A stretch of DNA of 64,000 nucleotides from a virus: IMG/VR virus record IMGVR_UViG_3300044843_000488, positions 1-64,000 of that record. One strand, written 5' to 3'. Below, one piece after another: positions 43,288-54,786 of this stretch (the stretch's first letter is position 1; the number at the start of each line of letters is the position of its first letter). Both the position numbers and the translations under genes were made by a program. The notes below the pieces were generated by a model. It was not told the DNA's origin. It saw nothing but the letters and a program-made list of their open reading frames with translations, and ran no database searches.

Positions 43288-44202
43288 TCAGGCTTTTTCG
43301 ACGTAAAGTGCGCTCTTGGGGTAGTACAGAGCGACGCCGCCGATGCGGGCGTGTGCCGCCACGGTGAACTCCAGGTTTTGGCGCACAGGGGGCAAAAACT
43401 CCAGAGTGCGGGGCACGTGCAGCTGCAGCTTTTCTGGGCTGCGGTCGTAGCAGATGATGCGGTCCTTGGACAGCTTGCTGCCAGACTTCGAAGCTTCCAG
43501 CTCGTTGATCGGCTCGATAGAGCGGATCATGGGGTTAGTGCGGAGGAAGAACTCCATCACCGTGGTATCCGAGGTGGTGCTACGGGGAGTGGTGCTGATA
43601 ACGCGATACACGTCGTAGGGCACCAGCATCGTGTTGGGAGCCTCCTTCATGTTGGAGTTCTGCACGATGCGGGTAGGAGCCTCATTCAGCAGCTCCAGCA
43701 TCTCGTCGGTGGTGATGGTTGCGTCGTCAAACCACTTCGAGGGGACAAGCTTGTCGACGTTGGCGTTGTTAAAGAAGCCGTCCATCGCCACGGCACCATC
43801 GCCGAAGTAGGCGACCTCTTGGACTTTCTCCTCATAGGCGCGACGCACAGCATTGGCGCGGCGCTGCTCCAGGTTCATGCCGGGCACCATGGCGGCAGCA
43901 CGAGTTTCCTGGATCGTGTAGGAGAAGGAGGCGCCCAGGCTGCGAACAGCATGAGTCACTTCCTTGCGCAGGACGTCCGCACGCGGCAGATCGCTTGCCT
44001 TGTCCTGAATAAGCTTCATTTTGCCCTGAGCATCAAAGATGCGGTAGGTGAAGCTGTCAGCACCAGGACCCACTTCAGTGGAAATGGGGATGATCTGGGA
44101 GTACTTGATGTCAGCGTATTGGACTTCAAAAGTCCGGGCCAGAATCTGCTCAAGCTCTCTAGCAAGAAACAGACCGGCGTCGTCGTTGCGAATATCAGTC
44201 AT
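43288..44202 (-). CDS. Major capsid protein (DUF2184 family)
   Basis: Start MTDIRNDD at 44202; FLARELEQI, DLPRAD, YTIQE, AYFGD and GGV..YYP. Confidence 0.9.
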   Translation of the reverse strand: MTDIRNDDAGLFLARELEQILARTFEVQYADIKYSQIIPISTEVGPGADSFTYRIFDAQGKMKLIQDKASDLPRADVLRKEVTHAVRSLGASFSYTIQETRAAAMVPGMNLEQRRANAVRRAYEEKVQEVAYFGDGAVAMDGFFNNANVDKLVPSKWFDDATITTDEMLELLNEAPTRIVQNSNMKEAPNTMLVPYDVYRVISTTPRSTTSDTTVMEFFLRTNPMIRSIEPINELEASKSGSKLSKDRIICYDRSPEKLQLHVPRTLEFLPPVRQNLEFTVAAHARIGGVALYYPKSALYVEKA

Positions 44203-44219
44203 TGGTTGGGTGCCTCCTA

Positions 44220-44846
44220 TCAGGTGTCTGCGGAAACAGTGAAGGTCGGGATGTCGATCTCCAGGAGGGCAATGCCACCGGCTGCAGCTGCGCTGAGCCA
44301 ACGGGCACCAGCAGTCACCTCGAAGGTCTTACCGGCAGAAGCGGTTTTGCCGAAACGGCCCTTGTATCCGCCATTGGTGGCGGCACTGGCGTGATCGGTG
44401 TGGTACAGCCGTACGGCGTCGCCCAGGGCAACGGCGTCAACGGAGTACACAAAAATGACGCCCTTGCTCAGGACATTCATCACTTGCTTGTTGGCGTAGC
44501 CGACTCGACCATCGGAGGTCTTAACGGTGCCAGGAATGGTGCCGGTGCCTTGGTAAGAACCATTGGCGTTGGCTTCAAAGGTGTAGCTGTCTGCAGCAAT
44601 GCCCAGGACTTTGGTTCCAGTAGCCCCGGCGGGGAGCTTGGCGCCAAGACCAGAGGTAGCGGCGCTATCAATGATCACGGCGTGACCAAAAGGAATGACA
44701 GCAGACGATTCATTGGTGTACGACCGGGAGACATAAGCCTGCAGGTCGCCGAGCATGCCTTCGTGACCAACAGTCAGGGTCTGAGGGTAGGAACCCTGAG
44801 CACCTGCGGGATTGGCGACGGTAGTGGTGGTGTAGGTAATAGCCAT
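44220..44846 (-). CDS. Head decoration/cement protein
   Basis: IPFGHAV, VMNVLSKG and ARW; between the scaffold and capsid genes. Confidence 0.75.
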   Translation of the reverse strand: MAITYTTTTVANPAGAQGSYPQTLTVGHEGMLGDLQAYVSRSYTNESSAVIPFGHAVIIDSAATSGLGAKLPAGATGTKVLGIAADSYTFEANANGSYQGTGTIPGTVKTSDGRVGYANKQVMNVLSKGVIFVYSVDAVALGDAVRLYHTDHASAATNGGYKGRFGKTASAGKTFEVTAGARWLSAAAAGGIALLEIDIPTFTVSADT

Positions 44847-44861
44847 TACTTTGCGCTCCTA

Positions 44862-46094
44862 TCAAACGTGAGCAGTGAGGTCTGACTTCCAACCGTTCAG
44901 CAGACGCTCACGGTAGGAGGATTGGCTGTCCATCTTCTCGGCCGCGTGGACTTGGGCCAGGGCAGCACGAACTTCAGCCACATTGGAGCCATCTTCCTCA
45001 GGCTGGAAGTCGGCGTCCTCTTTGATCTCCTCCTCGTCACCTTCCATGTCTTCCATGGCGGCAAGTACACCGTCAAGGACACCCAGAAGGTAGTCGTTGG
45101 AAGCGTCTTCGCGGGGGGCTTTCTCAAAGACGTTCTCGTATGCAAGCGCCATGATCTGGTGCTCGTTCTCGCCGTCAAACTTGTAGTTCTCAGGGAGAAT
45201 TGGGGAGAATTTGTCGAGGCAAGCCAGACGTGCATTAACAGCCTGGTTGATTTGATCAGCATCGCTGCGCTCTGAGGCGGCGTCAGCAACTTGCTTTTCC
45301 AATTCTTCAATCCGCTCAAGGGCGGCGTCAAGACGACCAAGAACTTCTTCGTTCTCGGTCACAACAGCTTGGATCTGTTCTTCCTGCGAATCAAGCTTTT
45401 TAATAAGCTCGGCCTTGGCACGATCACTCTCCTTCACGAAGGATTGGACCACACCGGCAGTATCTGCTGGAAGTTCAAGATCCAGGCCGTCGAGGGTGAT
45501 TCGTGCCATGGAAGTTACGGGCGAATTCGACGGGTTTTCGTCCCATGCCACCGCATCGTTGCGGTCACATGAGTCGAGGATCAGACGGACATCACGACCG
45601 GCACGACCACGTGGGACAATCGCGATGTGATTAACGCGAATGTTCCGTTGGATGCCGTCGTAACTCTCGCCTGCGGGTGTGACGCCAGGGGTGGGGTCAT
45701 AGTCGACGCGGTAGCCGGCACTGACCTCTTGTGCGTCACCCCGCTGGATACGTTCAATCGCTGCTTTGTCCGTGACGACAAGCGCGACTTCTACGAAGCC
45801 ATCGGAGAATCGAACTTGCGAGCCAGCATGTCCGATCTGATGAACCTTTGTATTTTCAGCATCCAACAGAACCGGGGGATGACCCATGGTTACTGCTTTC
45901 ATGCCGAAAGAGGCTAGAGACTCAGGTTTCGCTACTTCTTCTTCAGGGCGATATTCACGCACTTGCGTTCCATCACCCCTGGTATAAAGCTGCGTCCCTA
46001 CTCGGGCCGCCTTACACCACACTTTCAAGTAACCTTCGTCCGTTGTTTCGGACTTGGTTACCTGACCGTAATCGTAGCGACTTACAGTCTCCAT
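44862..46094 (-). CDS. DUF2213 prohead protease/scaffold
   Basis: TDEGYL, ARVG, EYRPEEEV, TMGHP, EVSAGY and NHIAIVPRGRAG; acidic coiled-coil C-terminus. Confidence 0.9.
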   Translation of the reverse strand: METVSRYDYGQVTKSETTDEGYLKVWCKAARVGTQLYTRGDGTQVREYRPEEEVAKPESLASFGMKAVTMGHPPVLLDAENTKVHQIGHAGSQVRFSDGFVEVALVVTDKAAIERIQRGDAQEVSAGYRVDYDPTPGVTPAGESYDGIQRNIRVNHIAIVPRGRAGRDVRLILDSCDRNDAVAWDENPSNSPVTSMARITLDGLDLELPADTAGVVQSFVKESDRAKAELIKKLDSQEEQIQAVVTENEEVLGRLDAALERIEELEKQVADAASERSDADQINQAVNARLACLDKFSPILPENYKFDGENEHQIMALAYENVFEKAPREDASNDYLLGVLDGVLAAMEDMEGDEEEIKEDADFQPEEDGSNVAEVRAALAQVHAAEKMDSQSSYRERLLNGWKSDLTAHV

Positions 46095-46103
46095 ATCCTG
46101 ATA

Positions 46104-46568
46104 CTAACTAAATTTAGCGCTATAAGTATCAGAACTTCTGATGCACCCTTTGTTTATGAGGTAAGGGGACCAGTTAAAGCTGTCAAAACGTCTTCTGTGA
46201 TTCTTTTCGGGTGGGTGCCAGCGTAAGGATGTGACACCTTTCGTTGCCGAAAGCGGTACCATCCAGATTCTCTCGTATTCGAGGCTAACGACTCCGAGAT
46301 AGTCGATTTCTTCGCTGGTGTAGGCACGGTTTCCTTTGGACCCGTTGCTTGTCTTCGTGTCTGCCTGGTAGTACTTCCCGGAGGGAACCCAGTGCAGCGT
46401 TTTCACGTTGACGCGCTGGAGGCCACCGTTCCATTCGACTACGTAGTCGACACGGTGGAGGTCGTGCTTAGGAGCGGCGATGAACACACCTTGTTCAAGG
46501 AAATAGCCCTCAAACATGTGCTCGCCCTTCGCGCCCCGGTGGGCTGAGTGCGTGCTGATACAGGTCAC
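46104..46568 (-). mobile_element. Free-standing PD-(D/E)XK homing-type endonuclease
   Basis: G..GE, DYVVE, RVNVKT and Y...EIDY of the group-I-intron-associated PD-(D/E)XK family. Confidence 0.75.
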
Positions 46569-46604
46569 GTACTGTCATCAGTTACGCCTATTTAGCAGAT
46601 CAAA

Positions 46605-46688
46605 TCAGTTGGCTACTTGCGTTAACCATACTGTTGCTATCAGCATCCCACCTAGCCAGGTCAAGCCAAATATGACAACTGGGGGCAT
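46605..46688 (-). CDS. Possible 27-aa transmembrane peptide
   Basis: MPPVVIFGLTWLGGMLIATVWLTQVAN; TAATG-coupled to the upstream stop. Confidence 0.35.
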   Translation of the reverse strand: MPPVVIFGLTWLGGMLIATVWLTQVAN

Positions 46689-47302
46689 TAGGGTCTCGAC
46701 TTCTTGTAGCCATCCATAATCGTGGATAAGCGTTCGCGTACTTTCTTGGTCTCTGACCCTGCATCTTTGTAAAAACTGCCGAGATCTCTGCGGCGTCTAT
46801 AGCCAGGTTCATATTTGCGTCGCATTTTCTCCACAGTCAGGTTGTGGGTTCGCATGCCGCTCGTCAGTGAAGCCCGAGTTGCCTTCCCTGCCTTGTACAT
46901 GGCCTCGCCTACTGCCATGGCACGGTTCACCTCTGCAGTGGCAGCGCGCTTCATGGCACCTTCAGCTGCAACGTTGGCTGACCTGGCAGTCTCGCGAAGG
47001 CGCTCAGTCTTCGAGGGTGGACGCATGTTGTTCAGCGCCTCCCCCGAGAAATTCATTTTTTTCTTGTTTGTAGCAATCTTCTCGACCGCGTTCACCAGGG
47101 CCTTGTTCCCAGCACGGCGCGCAGCTCCTGGAGCAGACAGGATCGCTTTTCTGGAGTTTCTGTTCAGCAGAGCACCAGTTACAGCGACACCACCGGCTGC
47201 TACTGCAGCCTTGGCCACCGTGCTGCCGATGGATCCCTTGTTGCAGCGCCTGTTATCGGGTATCCCGGAGGCGCCGCACTTTTTGTCGAGCCGGCGTTTC
47301 AT
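46688..47302 (-). CDS. Basic head-region protein with a DKKCG..C.KG motif
   Basis: Very Arg/Lys-rich; shares the Cys motif with its neighbours. Confidence 0.7.
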   Translation of the reverse strand: MKRRLDKKCGASGIPDNRRCNKGSIGSTVAKAAVAAGGVAVTGALLNRNSRKAILSAPGAARRAGNKALVNAVEKIATNKKKMNFSGEALNNMRPPSKTERLRETARSANVAAEGAMKRAATAEVNRAMAVGEAMYKAGKATRASLTSGMRTHNLTVEKMRRKYEPGYRRRRDLGSFYKDAGSETKKVRERLSTIMDGYKKSRP

Positions 47303-47307
47303 CTCCT

Positions 47308-48216
47308 TCAGGCGTTGCGGGGCATACGGCGAATCCCGGATGCGCGCTCGCGGGCACGCCAGTAGAGATCCTTCAGGGGAGGAACACTACCGTTATTGGC
47401 ACGCTTGTACCCTTTCGCAGCTTCGCCGCCGACATAACCAGCCAGACCAGCGGCATTACCGAGGGTCTGACGCTTAAAGCCTCGTCCAATGTTGCCGGAG
47501 GCGAAGGCGTTAGCGCCTGTGAGATTGCCAGCCGCCATAGCGCCCTGGCTCACGGCTTTGCCGTACTGACCCTTAGACAGTGCCTCACCTGCTTGGACAG
47601 CGTTACTGATCCCGGAGGCAGCTGCCATCGTGGCGAGGTAGGTGCTGAGAGCACGCTTGCCTGCGCCCATTTTCTTCCCTTTATTGGGCTTGTTGATTTC
47701 CGCAGCTTTTGCCTGGGCCTGAGCCTTCACATCCGAGTCTTTGCCCTTTGGTGCAGCTCCGGTCCCCTTATTGCATTTTTTATTGTCTGCGATACCAGAG
47801 GCGCCGCACTTTTTGTCATCTCGGTCGTCGTCTGGCTCCTCTTCGCCCTTGGAGATCTTTTCAACGCCCATGCTGTCCAGGACAGCGTTGAAGTCAGCGG
47901 CCACGCTGTCCTTCATGTAGCCGCAACCGTCGGCGTAGGGAGACTTCTTCATGCCGCCGTCCTTCTTGCCGCAGGAGCACTTGCCCTTAGTGCCGTCGGT
48001 GCAGTCACAGCCTTTCTTCATACCCATGTCCTTTTTCTCCTCTGGTTTGGCAGTTTTGGCGGCTTGTTTGAAATCAGAAGCGCTGGGAGCCCCTTTCTGA
48101 CCCGGCTTCTTCATCTTTTCACCGGAACCAGCGGCGATGCGTTCGCGCTTTTTGCGGATGTTTTCGTAGAGACCGGGCTTGTTGCCATCGGCTTTGCCTA
48201 TGCGTGTCTCTTTCAT
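47308..48216 (-). CDS. Basic modular head-region protein
   Basis: KPGLYENIRKKR module, CDC/CSC module and DKKCG motif. Confidence 0.7.
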   Translation of the reverse strand: MKETRIGKADGNKPGLYENIRKKRERIAAGSGEKMKKPGQKGAPSASDFKQAAKTAKPEEKKDMGMKKGCDCTDGTKGKCSCGKKDGGMKKSPYADGCGYMKDSVAADFNAVLDSMGVEKISKGEEEPDDDRDDKKCGASGIADNKKCNKGTGAAPKGKDSDVKAQAQAKAAEINKPNKGKKMGAGKRALSTYLATMAAASGISNAVQAGEALSKGQYGKAVSQGAMAAGNLTGANAFASGNIGRGFKRQTLGNAAGLAGYVGGEAAKGYKRANNGSVPPLKDLYWRARERASGIRRMPRNA

Positions 48217-49073
48217 GTTTCCCTCGTCGGGATAGGAGCTAATTCTTCGAAAACGGATGGACCGTAACTTAAGTCCACACCTTTATTCCTAGCGTAACGC
48301 AGTACTTCTTGGCGATGCTTCTTTCGGAGGTTGTCGTATTCAGGATCGACCTCCCAGACATTGTCGCTATAGGGCGCTAAATAGCATCTGCAGCGGGGAT
48401 GCCTGGGTACAGCAATTGCCCCTCGCTTAAAGATGTTCCCGGCGTGGGCAGTGCAGTAGGGGCAGGAGCGGTCGTCAGTTGTGGCGTAGTACATCACAAG
48501 GTCGATCCCGTTTTGGGTGTAGTACGCATTAGCCGCTTCGTTGTGGGCGCGCAGAGACTCTGTTCTTACAATGACTTCAGCTCTCGACTTGGTAACTTTC
48601 AGACGGCGCTGCAGATCTTTTGTCATTTCTTCAGTAGGGCGCCCTTCTGCTACACCTTGCGATAACACCTCTGCGGCGGCGGTAGAAAATGTTGCTCCAT
48701 GTCTCTCTAAGTATCCTCGCGCTGTCCTTGCTGCTGCTACAACTGCTTCTACTGGGACGGTTACGCCAACTTGAGAATCTTTTACAGACTTCGATAGCTG
48801 TCCAGCTAGATCTAGGCCAAAAGATGTTGACCGAGATAACAGGCGTTGAAACGCAGATAAGTATTCGTCAGCCTGGTCAGGCCGTAGTGGAGGAATCAGC
48901 TCCAAAGCCCGAGCGTTTCTCTCTGCAGTCTGAAATCGACCGCTACGTAACTGACCGTATGTACGGCGAAGAAGACGATTGAATGCTCGGTCCAGTGATC
49001 CGTTGACAATATCAATTATCTTTTGCTCTTCGTTCTTGAGAGCTGTGTTGTAAGCTTCGATCAGGTCTTCCAC
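48213..49073 (-). CDS. Head morphogenesis protein (SPP1 gp7 / MuF)
   Basis: RAEVIVRTE, DDRSCPYC and PRHPRCRC. Confidence 0.9.
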   Translation of the reverse strand: MEDLIEAYNTALKNEEQKIIDIVNGSLDRAFNRLLRRTYGQLRSGRFQTAERNARALELIPPLRPDQADEYLSAFQRLLSRSTSFGLDLAGQLSKSVKDSQVGVTVPVEAVVAAARTARGYLERHGATFSTAAAEVLSQGVAEGRPTEEMTKDLQRRLKVTKSRAEVIVRTESLRAHNEAANAYYTQNGIDLVMYYATTDDRSCPYCTAHAGNIFKRGAIAVPRHPRCRCYLAPYSDNVWEVDPEYDNLRKKHRQEVLRYARNKGVDLSYGPSVFEELAPIPTRET

Positions 49074-49076
49074 AGC

Positions 49077-50618
49077 TCACCATTTGGCTTGATTTGCCCA
49101 GTAGGCTGCGCTCATCTTGCCCTTTGCAATGTTCGACGCATGGCGTGCTTTCCAGGCGCGGCGTCGAGATGCATATGCCTTTGACTCACCTTGTTTCGGT
49201 GGGCTCCCTTCGACACCTTGCTGGCCAAAGCGGATCAGCTTCACATCACCACCTTCACGGGCCAGTACGGCGTGCGATTTGGTCGGGTGGTTGGGGGTGC
49301 GCTTCGGCTTGTTGTAGTCGGAGAATGTTTCGCCGTGATGCTCCACCGCATCCCCAGTACGGCGCCTAGGCTGAGCTCCGTATTTACCTTGACCTTTTTC
49401 GCGCATCCGGCGGAGAGCTTCTACCTCCTTGACGGTCATTCGCCGGCCTTTTGACGCCACCCAGGGACCCTTAGGTACCAGGGTGGCCTGCGTCTTTCCC
49501 AGGCTGGCTTTGCTCGCGTGACGGAGCGCAACGGCGCCGCCGGCTACCAGGGCAGCGGTTGCAGCCGCTTTGGCGACCTGGCGTCCTTCGCCAGATCCCT
49601 TGTGGCACTTCTTCGACTCCTCGATTGCTGAGGAGCCGCACTTCTTGTCTGCACGCTGCTCCTCGGCATCGAGCCCGAAGCGCTCCTGCCAACTACGGCG
49701 ATCTGGCTTAGGCCCCCGGCGGCGTTGGGGCCGGAGGTTGCTGGTCTGGCGGCGCCCTGAGCGGAAGTCCTTTGCTCTCTGCTCGATGGTGCGAACTACC
49801 TTCTCAGCTGTGTTGTAGTTGCCTGTCAGGAGTCCCTCAATGTTTCGGGTCGCCTTGGTGATGCTGGCGATTCTGCGTGTGGTGACCGATCTGGCTGTCT
49901 CTTTCTCCTGAATCTGCCGAGTCAGGCGATTAAGTGTCGTGTCCAGGGAGCGAAGGCTCCGGCGTTGGGCAGTTGTTCCTCCCTGAGTCCCCATGCGGGT
50001 CATCAGGCTGGAGCGTTCACGCTCGTAAACCTCACGCTTGCTCTTGAGCTTGCCGATGCTTTCACCCATTCGGCGAGAAGCGATCTGCGTCTGTGCCAAC
50101 ACACCTTTTAGTTGCCTGAGTCGTGTTCGCCCTCTCTGGTTCTGGGCCAGGCTGGCTCCCATGTTTGCGCCAGCTTGAAAAGCGCCAACGCCCATGTTTA
50201 CGACACCTGCCGCAGCGCCTGTTGGGCCGGGAAGGTTGGATGCCATACCTGCAATGTTGGACATCACACCCATACGGTTCGCTACACGGCGAGTGGCTTG
50301 AGGATTCTTGCTGGCCAGGTAGCCAGCCCCCACAGCCGCCCCCGCCACGCCAGCAGCACCAGCCAGCACCCGGATAGTCTGATTTCTCCGGCGGCGGGTT
50401 CGTAGCCCCCTCAGTCTTTCTTTTTGAGCGCCACTCAGCTGGACCTCATTCCCCCGGGTTGGGGGTGTATCGCCTTCGCCCCGGATCCGGCAGTTCCAGT
50501 TTTTTGGGATGCAACGGCCCCCGCAGGGCTTTCCGTTTGCGGTGCACTTTCTCTGAGCGGCTACGTCACCACGCAGTGCTGCGAGGTAGAGATCTTTGGC
50601 TTCTTCTCTCTTCGTCAC
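49077..50618 (-). CDS. Large basic modular head-region protein
   Basis: KPCGGRCIP...C, DKKCG..C.KG, and C-terminal YNKPKRTPNHPTKSH..IRFGQQG..SAAYWA module. Confidence 0.72.
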   Translation of the reverse strand: MTKREEAKDLYLAALRGDVAAQRKCTANGKPCGGRCIPKNWNCRIRGEGDTPPTRGNEVQLSGAQKERLRGLRTRRRRNQTIRVLAGAAGVAGAAVGAGYLASKNPQATRRVANRMGVMSNIAGMASNLPGPTGAAAGVVNMGVGAFQAGANMGASLAQNQRGRTRLRQLKGVLAQTQIASRRMGESIGKLKSKREVYERERSSLMTRMGTQGGTTAQRRSLRSLDTTLNRLTRQIQEKETARSVTTRRIASITKATRNIEGLLTGNYNTAEKVVRTIEQRAKDFRSGRRQTSNLRPQRRRGPKPDRRSWQERFGLDAEEQRADKKCGSSAIEESKKCHKGSGEGRQVAKAAATAALVAGGAVALRHASKASLGKTQATLVPKGPWVASKGRRMTVKEVEALRRMREKGQGKYGAQPRRRTGDAVEHHGETFSDYNKPKRTPNHPTKSHAVLAREGGDVKLIRFGQQGVEGSPPKQGESKAYASRRRAWKARHASNIAKGKMSAAYWANQAKW

Positions 50619-52423
50619 GGGTAATCAAAGACAGATGTTTGCAGATGCTCGATATCGCTTTCCTTGATTTGCTGCACTCCAGTGTTCCTGCCAGGAGCGA
50701 AAGTTTGCAGGGCTTTAGAGGCGGAACGCGATGAGTAGAAGCCGAGCAGAAGCGGTCCTACTTCCATTGTGCCGTCTTCCCGCACAAAATGACCGCGATA
50801 AATCTTACGGTCGTTGAATCGATTTCCCACCAATACTACGTTTTCGGCGTCCTTCCTGTGGCCCAGGGTGTCCGTCAAAACACACATTCGATACACCCCA
50901 TTTGACGCATTGGCTTGGAGGGTCAAACCATGCATGTGGATGATCTCTTCAGAGTCGGTGTTGACCTGCTGCTCTTCCGCAGAGGTAGTCTGCTCGGTTT
51001 GCGGGGTGAGCTGTTGCTCCAGCGCTGCTTGTTGACCGACAAAGCCCTGAACCATGGACTCCTGCTCAAGTTCCCGCTTGAGCTGCAGGGCTTGCTCTTC
51101 TTCCTCCAGGAGTACCGTATCCATGCTGTACTCAGTGCCACCGAAACGGGATTGTCGGATCTCCATAGGTGTCAGCACGCCCATGTCGACGTAGAGCTTG
51201 TCTGTGTCGGCGACTTGCTTGCGTAATTCGGATTTGTCCTTATCAGACTCCGAGAAGTAGGGAGGGAAGTAGACGCTCCATTCCTCGGGTACTTGACCCC
51301 TGGTTGGTCCTTGCGGCATGGAGAGAACCAGCTGGAAGAACTGGTTCAAGGGCTTGCGGAGACTGTGGGTCTGGTAGCGCTCCACTGATTGCGCCCAGGA
51401 CTTGTCTTCGTACTTACCAGATTCGGACAATCCTCCAGCAGGTGACTGGCCGAACAGCAGGGTTTTGGGCATGTCCGCTGCTGCTACGAGGTCGTCGAGC
51501 AGCCGGTCAAACAGATCCTGTGCCCCAGAAAGGCTACGGGAAGCAAAACTTACTTCCTCCTCCGTGTCCAGAGCCATGCCGCCGTAGAGCGATCTGGCCA
51601 GCGCATTCGCCTCCATGCGAGCCCGCAACGCAGACTCTTTACCTGCGGTGACTTTGCTCGCTAAGCCCGGGATCTTGTGGACAAACAGGTCCATTTCGTT
51701 GAGCATCGTGGCCATACCGTCTGTTGCACCCCGGTACCGCTTCCACACCTCGTAGAAGGGTTGCAGGTACGACATACCCCAACCCTCATTGATCAGCCGT
51801 TGTCGCCAGGGGAGGAATAGTCCGTCGAAGCGCAGAACCCTTGAGCTGTGGACGAGCAGGTATTGAAGGTCGTTTTCTTGAAAGACGGCTTTGCTAGTTG
51901 AGATCCGGTAGAACTCGGGGTTCCTGTAGTTGAGGTAGTTGTAGTCGTTGGGCGTAATTTCTCGTCTGGAGAGGGGGACGAGGTCTGCAATGCCCCGTAT
52001 AAGCTCAGGCCGTACAGGCTGATCAGGAGCCAGCCCATCATCGAGCACCATAAAGAGTGCAGCCCCTCCGTACAAGCGTTGGAGCTTGAGCGCCTCTTCG
52101 CTGTAGTCAAAGAAATTGAGATCTTCTAGATAGTTCTCAAACGACTTTACTGTCCCTTCGTAGTCTTCTGTCTCTTCGCTGATCTTGATTGTCGGTTGCT
52201 CCGTTACAGCTGCTTCGGCATAAATATCGATTACCCGGCGGCACAGCGGGTCGTAGTACAGCGCCTCCAGTTCCTGCTCAGCCAGCAGCCTTGGGGTACG
52301 GACGGCGTAATACTCGCTCTTATCTTTGGTAGTGCCCAGGCCGGTGATGGCATTGATCAATACGCCGTCGTTCCGGACCTCGGAATCAAGCCTAATATCA
52401 GGAGTTTCAGAAGTTTCCGACAA
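50615..52423 (-). CDS. Portal protein (DUF1073 family)
   Basis: N.ITGLG..DK, RLYGGA, HSSRVLRF, GWGMS and P.T.LFG.SP.G. Confidence 0.9.
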   Translation of the reverse strand: MSETSETPDIRLDSEVRNDGVLINAITGLGTTKDKSEYYAVRTPRLLAEQELEALYYDPLCRRVIDIYAEAAVTEQPTIKISEETEDYEGTVKSFENYLEDLNFFDYSEEALKLQRLYGGAALFMVLDDGLAPDQPVRPELIRGIADLVPLSRREITPNDYNYLNYRNPEFYRISTSKAVFQENDLQYLLVHSSRVLRFDGLFLPWRQRLINEGWGMSYLQPFYEVWKRYRGATDGMATMLNEMDLFVHKIPGLASKVTAGKESALRARMEANALARSLYGGMALDTEEEVSFASRSLSGAQDLFDRLLDDLVAAADMPKTLLFGQSPAGGLSESGKYEDKSWAQSVERYQTHSLRKPLNQFFQLVLSMPQGPTRGQVPEEWSVYFPPYFSESDKDKSELRKQVADTDKLYVDMGVLTPMEIRQSRFGGTEYSMDTVLLEEEEQALQLKRELEQESMVQGFVGQQAALEQQLTPQTEQTTSAEEQQVNTDSEEIIHMHGLTLQANASNGVYRMCVLTDTLGHRKDAENVVLVGNRFNDRKIYRGHFVREDGTMEVGPLLLGFYSSRSASKALQTFAPGRNTGVQQIKESDIEHLQTSVFDYP

Positions 52424-52458
52424 AGTTTCAGCGCAAACTCTTTAACTCCAGCGTAACG

Positions 52459-52689
52459 TCAACCGTTTTCCTGTGCGTCGGTTTTTCCGTACATATAGCC
52501 TGTCACGTAAGCCAAATGGATCCACTTGTACATCAAGTCCTCTCTTGTCTTCAAATCCTCTACGGCGCAGTCACCGTAGAAGTATTCAGACATGAAGGTA
52601 AAAGGTCCGCTGAAACTCTGAAACCACTCCTGGAATGAGATTTGAGAGGCGTCATCCCAGTCCCATTGCTGAGTCGGGATCTTGCTCAC
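52459..52689 (-). CDS. Hypothetical protein
   Basis: Small ORF between TerL and portal. Confidence 0.6.
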   Translation of the reverse strand: MSKIPTQQWDWDDASQISFQEWFQSFSGPFTFMSEYFYGDCAVEDLKTREDLMYKWIHLAYVTGYMYGKTDAQENG

Positions 52690-52907
52690 TGTGTTGCTTC
52701 CATCATGAGAACATCCGATGCTTGCCAGAAACCTTCTTCCGCTAGCCAGTTAGCCACGCACTCCAGTACCAGGCGTGCATCGTCTTCGTAGTCAACTCTG
52801 TCATTCCAATCAGCAATGATGTCGGCAATCTGAGTGATGAGAGCCGGGGGATGAATTTCCGTCATTTGTTCTGACCGTATGAGATCTTCAGCATTTTCTG
52901 TATTCAA
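52686..52907 (-). CDS. Hypothetical protein
   Basis: Small acidic ORF; start uncertain. Confidence 0.55.
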   Translation of the reverse strand: MNTENAEDLIRSEQMTEIHPPALITQIADIIADWNDRVDYEDDARLVLECVANWLAEEGFWQASDVLMMEATQ

Positions 52908-52913
52908 TCGTGG

Positions 52914-53126
52914 CTAGGTCGGTGTCAGTCCTTCAGGTAACGCCAGAGTGGTCATGATCGATTCCCATTCGGAGTCGGATACCATCTGGTCGTCAGCTGC
53001 AGCTCCCCACTCATCGAGTTTCTGGAGCCACTGCTGAATTCGTGAGTGATCCATCGTGATGTTCCTGTAGACATAGAGACGGCTCAGGAACTTCCGATAG
53101 GTGTCCGCCCTCTGCTTGTCGTTCAT
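52914..53126 (-). CDS. Hypothetical protein
   Basis: ATGA-coupled to the upstream gene. Confidence 0.6.
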   Translation of the reverse strand: MNDKQRADTYRKFLSRLYVYRNITMDHSRIQQWLQKLDEWGAAADDQMVSDSEWESIMTTLALPEGLTPT

Positions 53127-53371
53127 TGCTCACCCATTTCCGGGGTGCTTTCACCCTCGGCTGGGGTGGTTTTGAAAAGCTTGTCGTGAGCTGCTCGAAA
53201 CCATAGGGCCTGCTGCATGAAGCGGTCCTCCTCTTCCACGAGCACGGCCTTGAGGTCCGTTAGGAACGTCACTATGTTCCCCTCGTCGAGGTACTCCGCT
53301 ACGGCGCCTCGCAACAGCCGCTTGTGATGGCTGTCGTCCTCTGTATTGAAAGCGGGGGTCGAAAATGGCAC
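53123..53371 (-). CDS. Hypothetical protein
   Basis: Coupled to the TerL stop. Confidence 0.6.
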   Translation of the reverse strand: MPFSTPAFNTEDDSHHKRLLRGAVAEYLDEGNIVTFLTDLKAVLVEEEDRFMQQALWFRAAHDKLFKTTPAEGESTPEMGEQ

Positions 53372-54786
53372 TAGATCAAGTCCAACCAGTCAGTCGTGGG
53401 CGTTGTAGCAACTGCAGACAGCGCCAGCGCAAGAGCCATGACTGAGTCGTCGTGAGCACCATCGCCTGCACAGCGATCTCCGGTTTCGAGCTGCCGGAAC
53501 ATCAGCATCTCGTGATAAAAGGGCTCTCTTGGAACGACGAGCTCCTCCCGCTCTAGGAAGTAGGTGATGCGGTCGGTATTGCTGATCTTGTTGGGACGGT
53601 TGGTGTTGTAGGGCTCGACCATGTACTTGGCCAGTGCCTTAGAAAGAACCTCAGATACGACAGCACCAACGCCGTTCTTTTCGCAGATCACCTTGTTAGG
53701 GGTGAAGTTCTCTGCCTGCTCGATGATCTGTTGGATGCAGTAGTCGCTGGACTTGTAGCGGGTGCGGAAGATGTTGACGACTCGGTAGGGCGGCTTGGTT
53801 ATATCCAGGACGACAGAGCACCAGAAGTCGTCGCCACCTGCTGCCGGGTCGACGGCCATGATGTAGTCGCGGTTCATCAGACCGCACTCGATAAGCTCCC
53901 CGTGGCATGCCTTCTCCACCAGGAGCGGGGGGAAGATCTGAGCGTCGGAGGCGACGAAGTCCATTTCGTACTCCTGACGCCAAGCCCGGTCTGTCAGCTT
54001 GGCCTTCGCCTTGGTCTTCTCCGCCCACTGAGGGTCGGCGGCGTAGATCGGGATGTCGGAGTAGTGGATGCGGAAGCGGTTCCAGCCGTCTTCCTCTTCG
54101 CCATGCCAAAGGTTGGCGAACATGTTGCCCATGCCATTCGGCGTGGACAGCAGGATGAGCTTGCCCCGGTCGCCCAGGGTGGCCATCGTGGGTTGCGCTG
54201 CGGTGTAGATCTCTTCAGCGCCGTCTAGGAAAGCGGCCTCATCCAGGACAACAACCGAAACGCTTGGGATTCCACGAGCTGCGCGAGGCGTCGCAGGGAG
54301 GAAGTAAATCGTGCCAAGGCCCTTAAACGAGAGCTCACTATTTGATTCTGTCGTGAACTCGATTCCTGAATCAGCAATACTGGCCGCTTGTGCGCGAATC
54401 CTTTTACCCAGCGCACCAGAGTCAGAGGCAGTTTTAGAGAACACAACCGCTGCAAACCCAGGCTCAGTCAGGGCTCGACACAGTAAATAGGAGCACACCG
54501 TTTCCGATGCGCCCACCTGGCGACTTTTTAGGACAATTGTGTACTGACTCTGACAAATGGAGTTGATCAGCTGCTTCTGAATATCGAAGGGCTGGAAGGG
54601 TTTGACGCTACCGGATGTACGAATCCAGGTCAGCGGGGCGAATTGATCCCAGTGATCAGCAGTGGGGAAGCGAGGTTTGAAGCCAACGGCGGTGGAGGTG
54701 AGGCGTTTTTGTTCCTCTTCCTTCTCACGCTGCGCTTGTAATTTCTCTAACCTCTCCAACCGGGTTAAGAGCTTGGCGCTGGGCAT
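53371..54786 (-). CDS. terL: Terminase large subunit
   Basis: Walker A KSRQVGAS, Walker B VVLDEAAF, STPNG; nuclease AVDPA and HDDSVMA. Confidence 0.95.
   Translation of the reverse strand: MPSAKLLTRLERLEKLQAQREKEEEQKRLTSTAVGFKPRFPTADHWDQFAPLTWIRTSGSVKPFQPFDIQKQLINSICQSQYTIVLKSRQVGASETVCSYLLCRALTEPGFAAVVFSKTASDSGALGKRIRAQAASIADSGIEFTTESNSELSFKGLGTIYFLPATPRAARGIPSVSVVVLDEAAFLDGAEEIYTAAQPTMATLGDRGKLILLSTPNGMGNMFANLWHGEEEDGWNRFRIHYSDIPIYAADPQWAEKTKAKAKLTDRAWRQEYEMDFVASDAQIFPPLLVEKACHGELIECGLMNRDYIMAVDPAAGGDDFWCSVVLDITKPPYRVVNIFRTRYKSSDYCIQQIIEQAENFTPNKVICEKNGVGAVVSEVLSKALAKYMVEPYNTNRPNKISNTDRITYFLEREELVVPREPFYHEMLMFRQLETGDRCAGDGAHDDSVMALALALSAVATTPTTDWLDLI

Follow-up and report, generated by a model that had tools for sequence, protein, structure and literature searches.

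A candidate Asp-specific (R/K)xD maturation code of DUF2213 prohead proteases in the head module of a cyanosiphovirus

Introduction

In phage T4, the prohead protease gp21 breaks down the scaffolding core and trims short N-terminal targeting peptides off the internal proteins, which are small, basic and head-internal, are encoded in a hypervariable region and carry a short N-terminal capsid-targeting leader ending in the protease motif. This enzyme prefers the motif I/LxE and its autoproteolysis is self-limiting (PMC12991175). The giant-phage proteases SPN3US gp245 and phiKZ gp175 cut at A-x-E↓ (here and below the arrow marks an established, predicted or candidate cut), where the middle residue can vary and the residue that follows the cut is preferably Ser, and remove N-terminal propeptides of capsid, portal and abundant ejection proteins with several cuts per propeptide (PMC10052503). 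Here we analysed a window consisting of the first 64,000 nucleotides of a complete virus record (IMG/VR record IMGVR_UViG_3300044843_000488), which measures 74,307 bp, has direct terminal repeats and belongs to a cyanosiphovirus whose nearest isolate is Synechococcus siphovirus S-CBS4. Its head module lies on the minus strand at positions 43288-54786, as do all window features described below, and encodes a DUF2213 protease-scaffold protein in which the tripeptide (R/K)xD recurs. In our judgement (R/K)xD followed by a small residue is probably a family-wide, Asp-specific cleavage code by which the DUF2213 proteases cut their own scaffold, the ends of the portal and the N-terminus of the capsid protein.

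The window scaffold shows a recurrent motif with an acidic P1 residue, a free P2 position and enrichment in the scaffold, and by analogy the (R/K)xD↓(A/G/S) code would be a natural variant of the T4 (I/L)xE and giant-phage AxE codes; given that the protease has the T4 gp21/herpesvirus protease fold, it looks parallel to (I/L)xE in particular. The window protease and gp21 have in common the fold, an acidic P1 and a specificity set two residues upstream, whereas in the window P1 is Asp instead of Glu, P3 is basic instead of aliphatic, protease and scaffold form a single polypeptide, the sequences are only about 10% identical and the Pfam family is a different one (DUF2213). Compared with the giant phages, the motif is another one and the predicted propeptides measure 5-20 residues as against 111-254; cleavage there was shown by mass spectrometry, while we infer that of the window phage. 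The T1-like coliphages T1 and TLS possess the same protease, capsid, MuF and portal families in the same gene order, and their mature capsid N-termini follow K-x-D; they differ from the window in the length of the capsid propeptide (26-27 residues there, 7 here) and in having no large basic open reading frames (ORFs) between portal and protease.

Results

Motif enrichment in the DUF2213 protein and its family

The DUF2213 protein (44862-46094, 410 amino acid residues, aa) consists of a prohead protease domain (aa 1-175, 45570-46094; PF09979, 8e-43) and a scaffold domain (aa 176-410, 44865-45569), the latter with nine (R/K)xD sites: RND↓A (178), KLD↓S (233), RLD↓A (254), RSD↓A (276), KFD↓G (305), RED↓A (328), KED↓A (358), KMD↓S (387) and KSD↓L (403). 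Expected counts were obtained from composition-preserving shuffles of each protein's residues. The whole protein contains 13 [RK]xD as against 3.8 expected, and the scaffold half alone contains nine as against 2.3, a number that no shuffle reached. When a small residue was required after Asp, the signal became sharper in both protease and portal, with 10 [RK]xD[AGST] against 1.0 expected in the protease-scaffold and five against 1.0 in the portal (p=0.004). Six related control patterns, including [RK]xE, [RK]D, Dx[RK] and [RK]xxD, showed no excess in the protease-scaffold. By position, [RK]xD occurs within the first 20 residues of six of the eight head proteins (0.9 expected) and of 2/25 other proteins (Fisher p=6e-4). 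Chance does not account for the motif in the scaffold, in the portal and at the N-terminal positions; it does account for the bulk counts of the basic ORFs treated below.

The initial annotation of this DNA had proposed Asp-specific maturation at (R/K)xD by the DUF2213 protease, a proposal that finds support in scaffold enrichment and conservation, in the head-protein N-termini and in two published capsid N-termini. The tripeptides that it listed all occur at the places given, in the capsid protein (IRND↓DA), in the portal (RLD↓SE, RND↓GV, RKD↓AE), in the protease/scaffold (RYD, RND↓AV, RSD↓AD, KED↓AD, KMD↓SQ) and in the basic ORFs (RGD↓VA, RAD↓KK, KAD↓GN, KKD↓MG, KKD↓GG, RDD↓KK, RLD↓KK, RRD↓LG). 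The enrichment that it anticipated in head over tail proteins holds for the protease-scaffold, the portal and the head-protein N-termini and does not extend to the basic ORFs; in the capsid protein, MuF, the cement protein (0 sites) and the tail proteins, [RK]xD is at or under expectation.

A scan of viral contigs yielded 56 related loci. All 13 protease-scaffold sites persist in 42 distinct relatives (49-96% identity), among which the basic residue and the Asp of the sites are 96-97% conserved, compared with a background of 81% and with 77% for non-motif Asp, while the middle residue varies freely (e.g. RLD/RAD/RVD/RID/RSD). An exhaustive profile search with the protease retrieved 11,878 cluster representatives at E≤1e-3. 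In 136 diverse full-length DUF2213 representatives, one per cluster at 50% identity, we counted 1792 [RK]xD against 705 expected and 1190 [RK]xD[AGST] against 208 expected. Residue preferences were determined in 142 representatives with a C-terminal region of at least 120 residues. Two residues before scaffold Asp, Arg is enriched 3.6-fold, His 2.1-fold and Lys 1.9-fold; directly before it, Phe (3.7-fold) and Leu (1.8-fold) are favoured; and after it Gly, Ser and Ala are favoured, Ala, Gly and Ser together accounting for 63% of the residues that follow the Asp of scaffold sites. Lys in this last position is about five-fold depleted (0.22-fold) among 1205 scaffold sites. R/K stands at -2 for 39% of scaffold Asp (2.5-fold), compared with only 0.64-0.95-fold for Glu, Ser, Thr, Asn and Gln, and scaffold Glu showed no comparable preferences around it in the same representatives. 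The sites fall in 127 different scaffold alignment columns, which indicates that site density is maintained and not particular positions. Both the enrichment of the motif in the scaffold domain of the protease and its conservation there extend across the DUF2213 family.

Protease fold and location of the scaffold sites

The DUF2213 protein scored 146.8 bits against PF09979 (cut-off 22, aa 17-171) and matched phrog_530 'head maturation protease' at 4e-83. A PDB sequence search with the protease returned no match, and only the fold search succeeded. In the AlphaFold2 model (mean predicted local distance difference test score, pLDDT, of 86), residues 1-175 form a compact domain with pLDDT above 95, whose best structural match is T4 gp21 (Z 11.6, root-mean-square deviation 2.9 Å, 130 residues aligned), followed by herpesvirus proteases (Z 7-9). 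H72, S125 and H156 are invariant in 88 aligned sequences and presumably catalytic. The compact domain is followed by a disordered linker (176-188), which holds RND↓A, then by a hairpin and six predicted helices (210-275, 279-299, 311-323, 333-351, 372-382 and 391-403), and seven of the nine scaffold sites are located in linkers or loops between helices. Both the helical C-terminal scaffold and the position of the gene between portal/MuF and the capsid protein fit a DUF2213 protease-scaffold fusion, and the protein is most likely a serine protease of the prohead that has the T4 gp21/herpesvirus assemblin fold and is joined to its own helical scaffold.

Several sites stand just ahead of helix starts in this model, and the hydrophobic residue favoured before Asp (Phe, Leu) resembles the 'hydrophobic staple' of helix capping, as would be expected if the motif served the scaffold structurally or in docking, for instance by capping helix N-termini or by touching the inside of the capsid, and the T1 and TLS matches were coincidental. 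We hold this to be very improbable. The preference for R/K at -2 is specific to Asp and absent for the capping residues Ser, Thr and Asn, and the 1612-aa tape measure protein, taken as largely helical, has no excess of [RK]xD (8 against 7.9 expected); simple helix N-capping is ruled out by these two results. The motif is moreover present at the unstructured N-termini of portal, capsid and cargo proteins, and two independent mature capsid N-termini, described in the next section, start exactly after it.

Portal and capsid termini

The portal (50615-52423, 602 aa; PF06381 2e-62, phrog_146) carries a predicted N-terminal trimming site, R17-N-D19↓G (52367-52375), which is conserved as RxD↓G in 17/17 relatives with five different middle residues (E/N/A/S/L), and a second N-terminal site, RLD↓S (52385-52393). 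The same portal end reads KHD↓G in T1 (MKIVKHD↓G), KED↓G in TLS (...TKED↓G) and RAD↓G in S-CBS4, whose capsid protein and MuF also have N-terminal motifs (RMD↓E and RFD↓A, respectively). Past the portal fold, a C-terminal extension (approximately aa 488-602) harbours the conserved sites RKD↓A (aa 523-525) and RED↓G (aa 548-550; both within 50774-50857), found in 16/17 and 14/17 relatives, respectively. This extension (50618-50962) of about 115 residues is itself conserved, and in several relatives it is extended further by a fused DUF5754-like module.

In the major capsid protein (43288-44202, 304 aa from the ATG at 44202; PF09950 4e-54, phrog_264), the site R5-N-D7↓D (44182-44190) predicts the removal of a seven-residue N-terminal peptide. 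R-(N/T)-D occupies residues 5-7 in all 35 of the 35 relatives compared, and BLASTP aligns the window R-N-D with K25-N-D27 of TLS. The longest capsid ORF (43288-44301, 337 aa) has a TTG start 33 codons upstream and overlaps the cement gene; this form is unlikely to be made because most relatives start at the ATG at 44202 in the alignment.

Mature capsid termini have been published for two T1-like phages. The Edman sequence of the mature TLS capsid protein is ASDMGIW (PMC11447400). In the deposited TLS capsid gene (L057:15087-16061) it begins at residue 28, immediately after ...RGAKND, and the TLS cut is therefore K-N-D↓A-S. The cryo-electron microscopy (cryo-EM) model of the T1 capsid begins at residue 27 (PMC11945409), and since the T1 protein reads ...GVKQD26↓A27AATMGIW, the model starts directly after K24-Q-D26. 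The proteases of T1 and TLS are both DUF2213 proteins with 11-12 extended sites as against 1.3 expected, and the TLS capsid protein belongs to PF09950, as in the window. From these matches we infer that the same cuts occur in the window phage. As a separate observation, the authors of the TLS paper suppose a loss of 45 residues from the capsid protein, unlike the residue-28 start of their own Edman sequence (PMC11447400). No usable mature terminus came from the publications on Rogue1, phage 7-7-1, roseophage R4C and Pam3. A literature search for a stated DUF2213 or T1-type (R/K)xD consensus found none, which, given the incomplete coverage of the search, is weak evidence of novelty.

Observations that weigh against the proposed code

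Several observations have to be set against an (R/K)xD code of this family. The published mature termini are those of the T1 and TLS capsid proteins, and the cuts of the window clade are predicted from sequence. The start of the T1 model may, in principle, reflect disorder and not cleavage, although the TLS Edman result argues otherwise. At the capsid site of the window clade, the predicted cut is followed by Asp or Glu. The folded protease domain itself contains four conserved [RK]xD, which may be structural. The head maturation protease of PB1, gp22 (L059:5172-6569), is also a DUF2213 protein and shows no obvious (R/K)xD excess by eye, and cleavage specificity may accordingly differ between DUF2213 subfamilies. 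Finally, the three basic ORFs of the window, when pooled, contain nine [RK]xD against 7.2 expected (p=0.29); 95 distinct basic cargo ORFs of relatives contain 234 against 204±13, no better than the control patterns; and the KKCG junctions of these ORFs, in the window and in most copies, have Lys after Asp, a residue disfavoured at scaffold sites.

A remnant scaffold fragment of phage Pa193, gp24 residues 286-326 (PMC11456595), was also considered as a fragment bounded by RxD sites. This candidate was rejected: the PB1 homologue has no flanking sites.

Basic ORFs and their modules

The portal and the protease genes are separated by three basic ORFs, namely ORF 1 (49077-50618, 513 aa, isoelectric point (pI) 11.4, net charge +67), ORF 2 (47308-48216, 302 aa, pI 9.8, net charge +27) and ORF 3 (46688-47302, 204 aa, pI 11.1, net charge +31); scaffold and portal are acidic, with net charges of -36 and -32, respectively. 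Their description as otherwise Asp-poor applies to the 513-aa (2.1% Asp) and 204-aa (2.5%) proteins and not to the 302-aa protein (6.3%). None of the three has a domain recognised by Pfam, and Pfam and PHROG searches of the cargo ORFs brought no toxin domain to light. In relatives where the basic ORFs have recognisable homologues, identity of the flanking genes is 75-95%, and the ORF 1 homologues of close relatives range from 469 to 1722 aa with 29-76% identity. The region is therefore hypervariable. The basic ORFs are also mosaic in build, as described below, and probably encode packaged, head-internal cargo proteins.

ORF 1 comprises two Cys-knuckle modules with a hydrophobic helix rich in Ala and Gly after each of them (aa 80-103 and 347-366), a junction module RAD↓KKCGSSAIEESKKCHKG (aa 322-341, 49596-49655), and a C-terminal DUF5754-like module of 88 residues (aa 426-513, 49080-49343; phrog_7595, 96 aa, 1e-34), for which the Atlas lists DUF5754 clusters and portal-fusion clusters. 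ORF 2 consists of a leader ending in KAD↓G, a phrog_16028 module (aa 12-58, 48043-48183; phrog_16028, 50 aa, 5e-22), a Cys-rich stretch, an RDD↓KKCG module (aa 132-151, 47764-47823) whose site is conserved in relatives, and an Ala/Gly-rich tail. ORF 3 starts with the leader MKRRLD, followed by a KKCG module, a hydrophobic helix (aa 23-47) and a basic helical hairpin; its AlphaFold2 model is confident only for helix 98-164, with pLDDT below 50 at residues 1-47.

Two of these modules had been likened in the initial annotation to stand-alone small phage ORFs, and this was confirmed: both phrog_7595 and phrog_16028 are separate small genes in many marine phages, the former being a stand-alone gene of about 90 aa in 46 phage records and the latter one of about 50 aa in 75. 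The DUF5754-like module is fused to the portal C-terminus in seven loci (L019, L020, L032, L042, L044, L048 and L052), which argues for residence inside the head, and in cyanophage KBS-S-2A a DUF5754-like gene lies between the MuF and coat genes. In the roseophages CRP-4 (L061, 14142-14870), CRP-5, CRP-810 and MW202701, the phrog_16028 and phrog_7595 genes are separate and no more than a few hundred bases apart, a proximity that hints that the two modules work together.

A repeat unit, RxD-K(K/P)CGxSxI-x4-5-KCxKG plus an Ala/Gly-rich hydrophobic helix, is present in all three ORFs and in 27 distinct copies in relatives, 23 of which keep the RxD. Among the relatives, KKCG-led units are either fused or form separate ORFs of 140-200 aa. 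At the KKCG junction module of ORF 1, the preceding RxD (RAD in the window) is retained in 22/24 aligned homologues, with a free middle residue. At the N-terminus, 63/69 homologues of ORF 3 have a leader of 5-13 residues ending in [RK]xD (within the first 16 residues), as against 5.6 expected. A distant ORF 3 subfamily opens with MALTPxxLRLD↓AxGRPCGQSHI, with altered spacing to the Cys pair and a small residue after Asp. This subfamily (P0168-P0193, alignment A2) has an optional Cys-containing cassette, ACWEGY...QKD, which is flanked on both sides by [RK]xD and precedes a Cys-rich DUF5754-like domain. On the whole, conserved cargo sites are few, namely RGD near the start of ORF 1, three RxD↓KKCG junctions and one KKD. 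Ahead of the DUF5754-like module, no basic residue is conserved at position -2 (TGD, YD, KKD, RLD). For the suggestion that the motif marks module boundaries, the outcome is mixed: RxD is conserved before the KKCG module but is followed there by the disfavoured Lys, and the junction at the DUF5754-like module is not conserved.

Possible processing of the cargo proteins

The initial annotation had taken the three basic ORFs for true polyproteins, cut in the prohead at every (R/K)xD and its variants into many small DNA-condensing or injected peptides. Such an arrangement would agree with ORFs built as mosaics of modules that are separate genes elsewhere, with KKCG units that occur fused or separate and keep RxD at the junction in most copies, with the short [RK]xD-ending leaders of most ORF 3 homologues, and with the distant subfamily, in which the RxD-Cys spacing shifts and the optional cassette is [RK]xD-flanked. 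Against it stand the chance-level motif counts of the cargo proteins, the Lys after Asp, which is strongly disfavoured at scaffold sites, the DUF5754-like junction and the small number of conserved sites, which would give some five to seven products of 100-300 aa. Since [RK]xD is at chance level in the three basic proteins, their cleavage into many small peptides lacks support, and we consider it unlikely. The signal noticed by that annotation is real, and the weight was placed on the wrong proteins.

A better prospect, still short of probable, is that the cargo RxD is part of the Cys-knuckle module, serving for example in a metal, DNA or portal contact, that the cargo proteins stay intact as internal or ejection proteins, and that the protease cuts only scaffold, portal and capsid. 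In 57 aligned sequences, R4 and D6 are nearly invariant beside the invariant C9, G10, I14 and C20, the two-residue spacing to the Cys pair is fixed in most copies, and the Lys after Asp mismatches the scaffold preference. The MALTP...RLD↓AxGRPCG subfamily does not conform, as it differs in spacing and has A/S/T/G/N after Asp, as at scaffold sites; in addition, whenever an ORF begins with the module, its RxD comes after a short leader that looks dispensable.

Extending the (R/K)xD cleavage code to the hypervariable cargo is tentative, and as a whole we rate it as rather unlikely. In this extension, head-internal cargo proteins would be put together from cassettes, namely a leader with RxD, a knuckle with two Cys, a hydrophobic helix and a variable effector of basic or DUF5754 type, and these cassettes would be shuffled, joined to one another or attached to the portal. 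Their release would fall to the prohead protease, and small proteins that other marine phages encode as separate genes would be delivered ready-made together with the DNA. Limited processing, that is, leader removal and some splitting at the unit junctions, is plausible from the sequence patterns, and the basic ORFs may be split at their RxD↓KKCG junctions; the conserved sites suggest at most a handful of products of 100-300 aa.

The cargo ORFs, whose products are predicted to be packaged, resemble the T4 internal proteins in leader, basicity and hypervariability; they differ from them in showing no sequence similarity and in having units with a two-Cys knuckle and an Ala/Gly-rich hydrophobic helix, often in tandem fusions. 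They also recall MuF polymorphic toxins, with variable cargo beside a MuF head protein, between portal and scaffold. However, the MuF-like head morphogenesis protein of the window (48213-49073, 286 aa; PF04233 2e-14 at aa 135-232, phrog_115) has PF04233 only and no C-terminal toxin, and the cargo lies in separate ORFs.

Other genes of the head module

The head module further includes the large terminase (53371-54786, 471 aa), the cement (decoration) protein (44220-44846, 208 aa; PF22758 5e-20) and a PD-(D/E)XK endonuclease (46104-46568, 154 aa; PF11645 2e-11). The last of these, a PD-(D/E)XK_5 endonuclease gene, is odd for a head module and stands between the cargo ORFs and the protease in the same place in 49 related loci; it is a neighbour inside the module and lies outside the motif system.

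Discussion

In the present analysis, the motif statistics and conservation, the fold, the invariant His/Ser/His and the match to two published T1-like capsid N-termini were shown, and they point to the following course of maturation. The acidic protease-scaffold would co-assemble with the capsid protein, the portal and the basic cargo proteins. Once activated, the protease would cleave after Asp and digest its own scaffold at about nine sites, mostly in inter-helix loops and first at RND↓A in the protease-scaffold linker, and the scaffold fragments would then be able to exit the shell. The portal N-terminus would lose about 19 residues, and perhaps parts of the C-terminal extension would be removed as well; the capsid protein would lose seven residues, and the cargo proteins probably their short N-terminal leaders.

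The DUF2213 family is very large and includes T1-like coliphages and many Klebsiella, Vibrio and cyanobacterial phages. If the code is true, the mature termini of capsid, portal and internal proteins would be predictable from sequence, which would aid the fitting of cryo-EM maps and virion proteomics, and the clearing of the DUF2213-type scaffold from the shell would be explained. Escape mutants of the type I cyclic oligonucleotide-based antiphage signalling system (CBASS) map to the Drexlerviridae prohead protease (bioRxiv 10.1101/2023.05.21.541620), and prohead proteases activate CBASS by cleaving loops of sensor enzymes (2026 preprint, PMC12991175); (R/K)xD cutting, if true, would let one ask which CBASS sensors carry such bait. 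Finally, the modular cargo region, if packaged, would represent a new case of virion-delivered proteins in marine siphoviruses.

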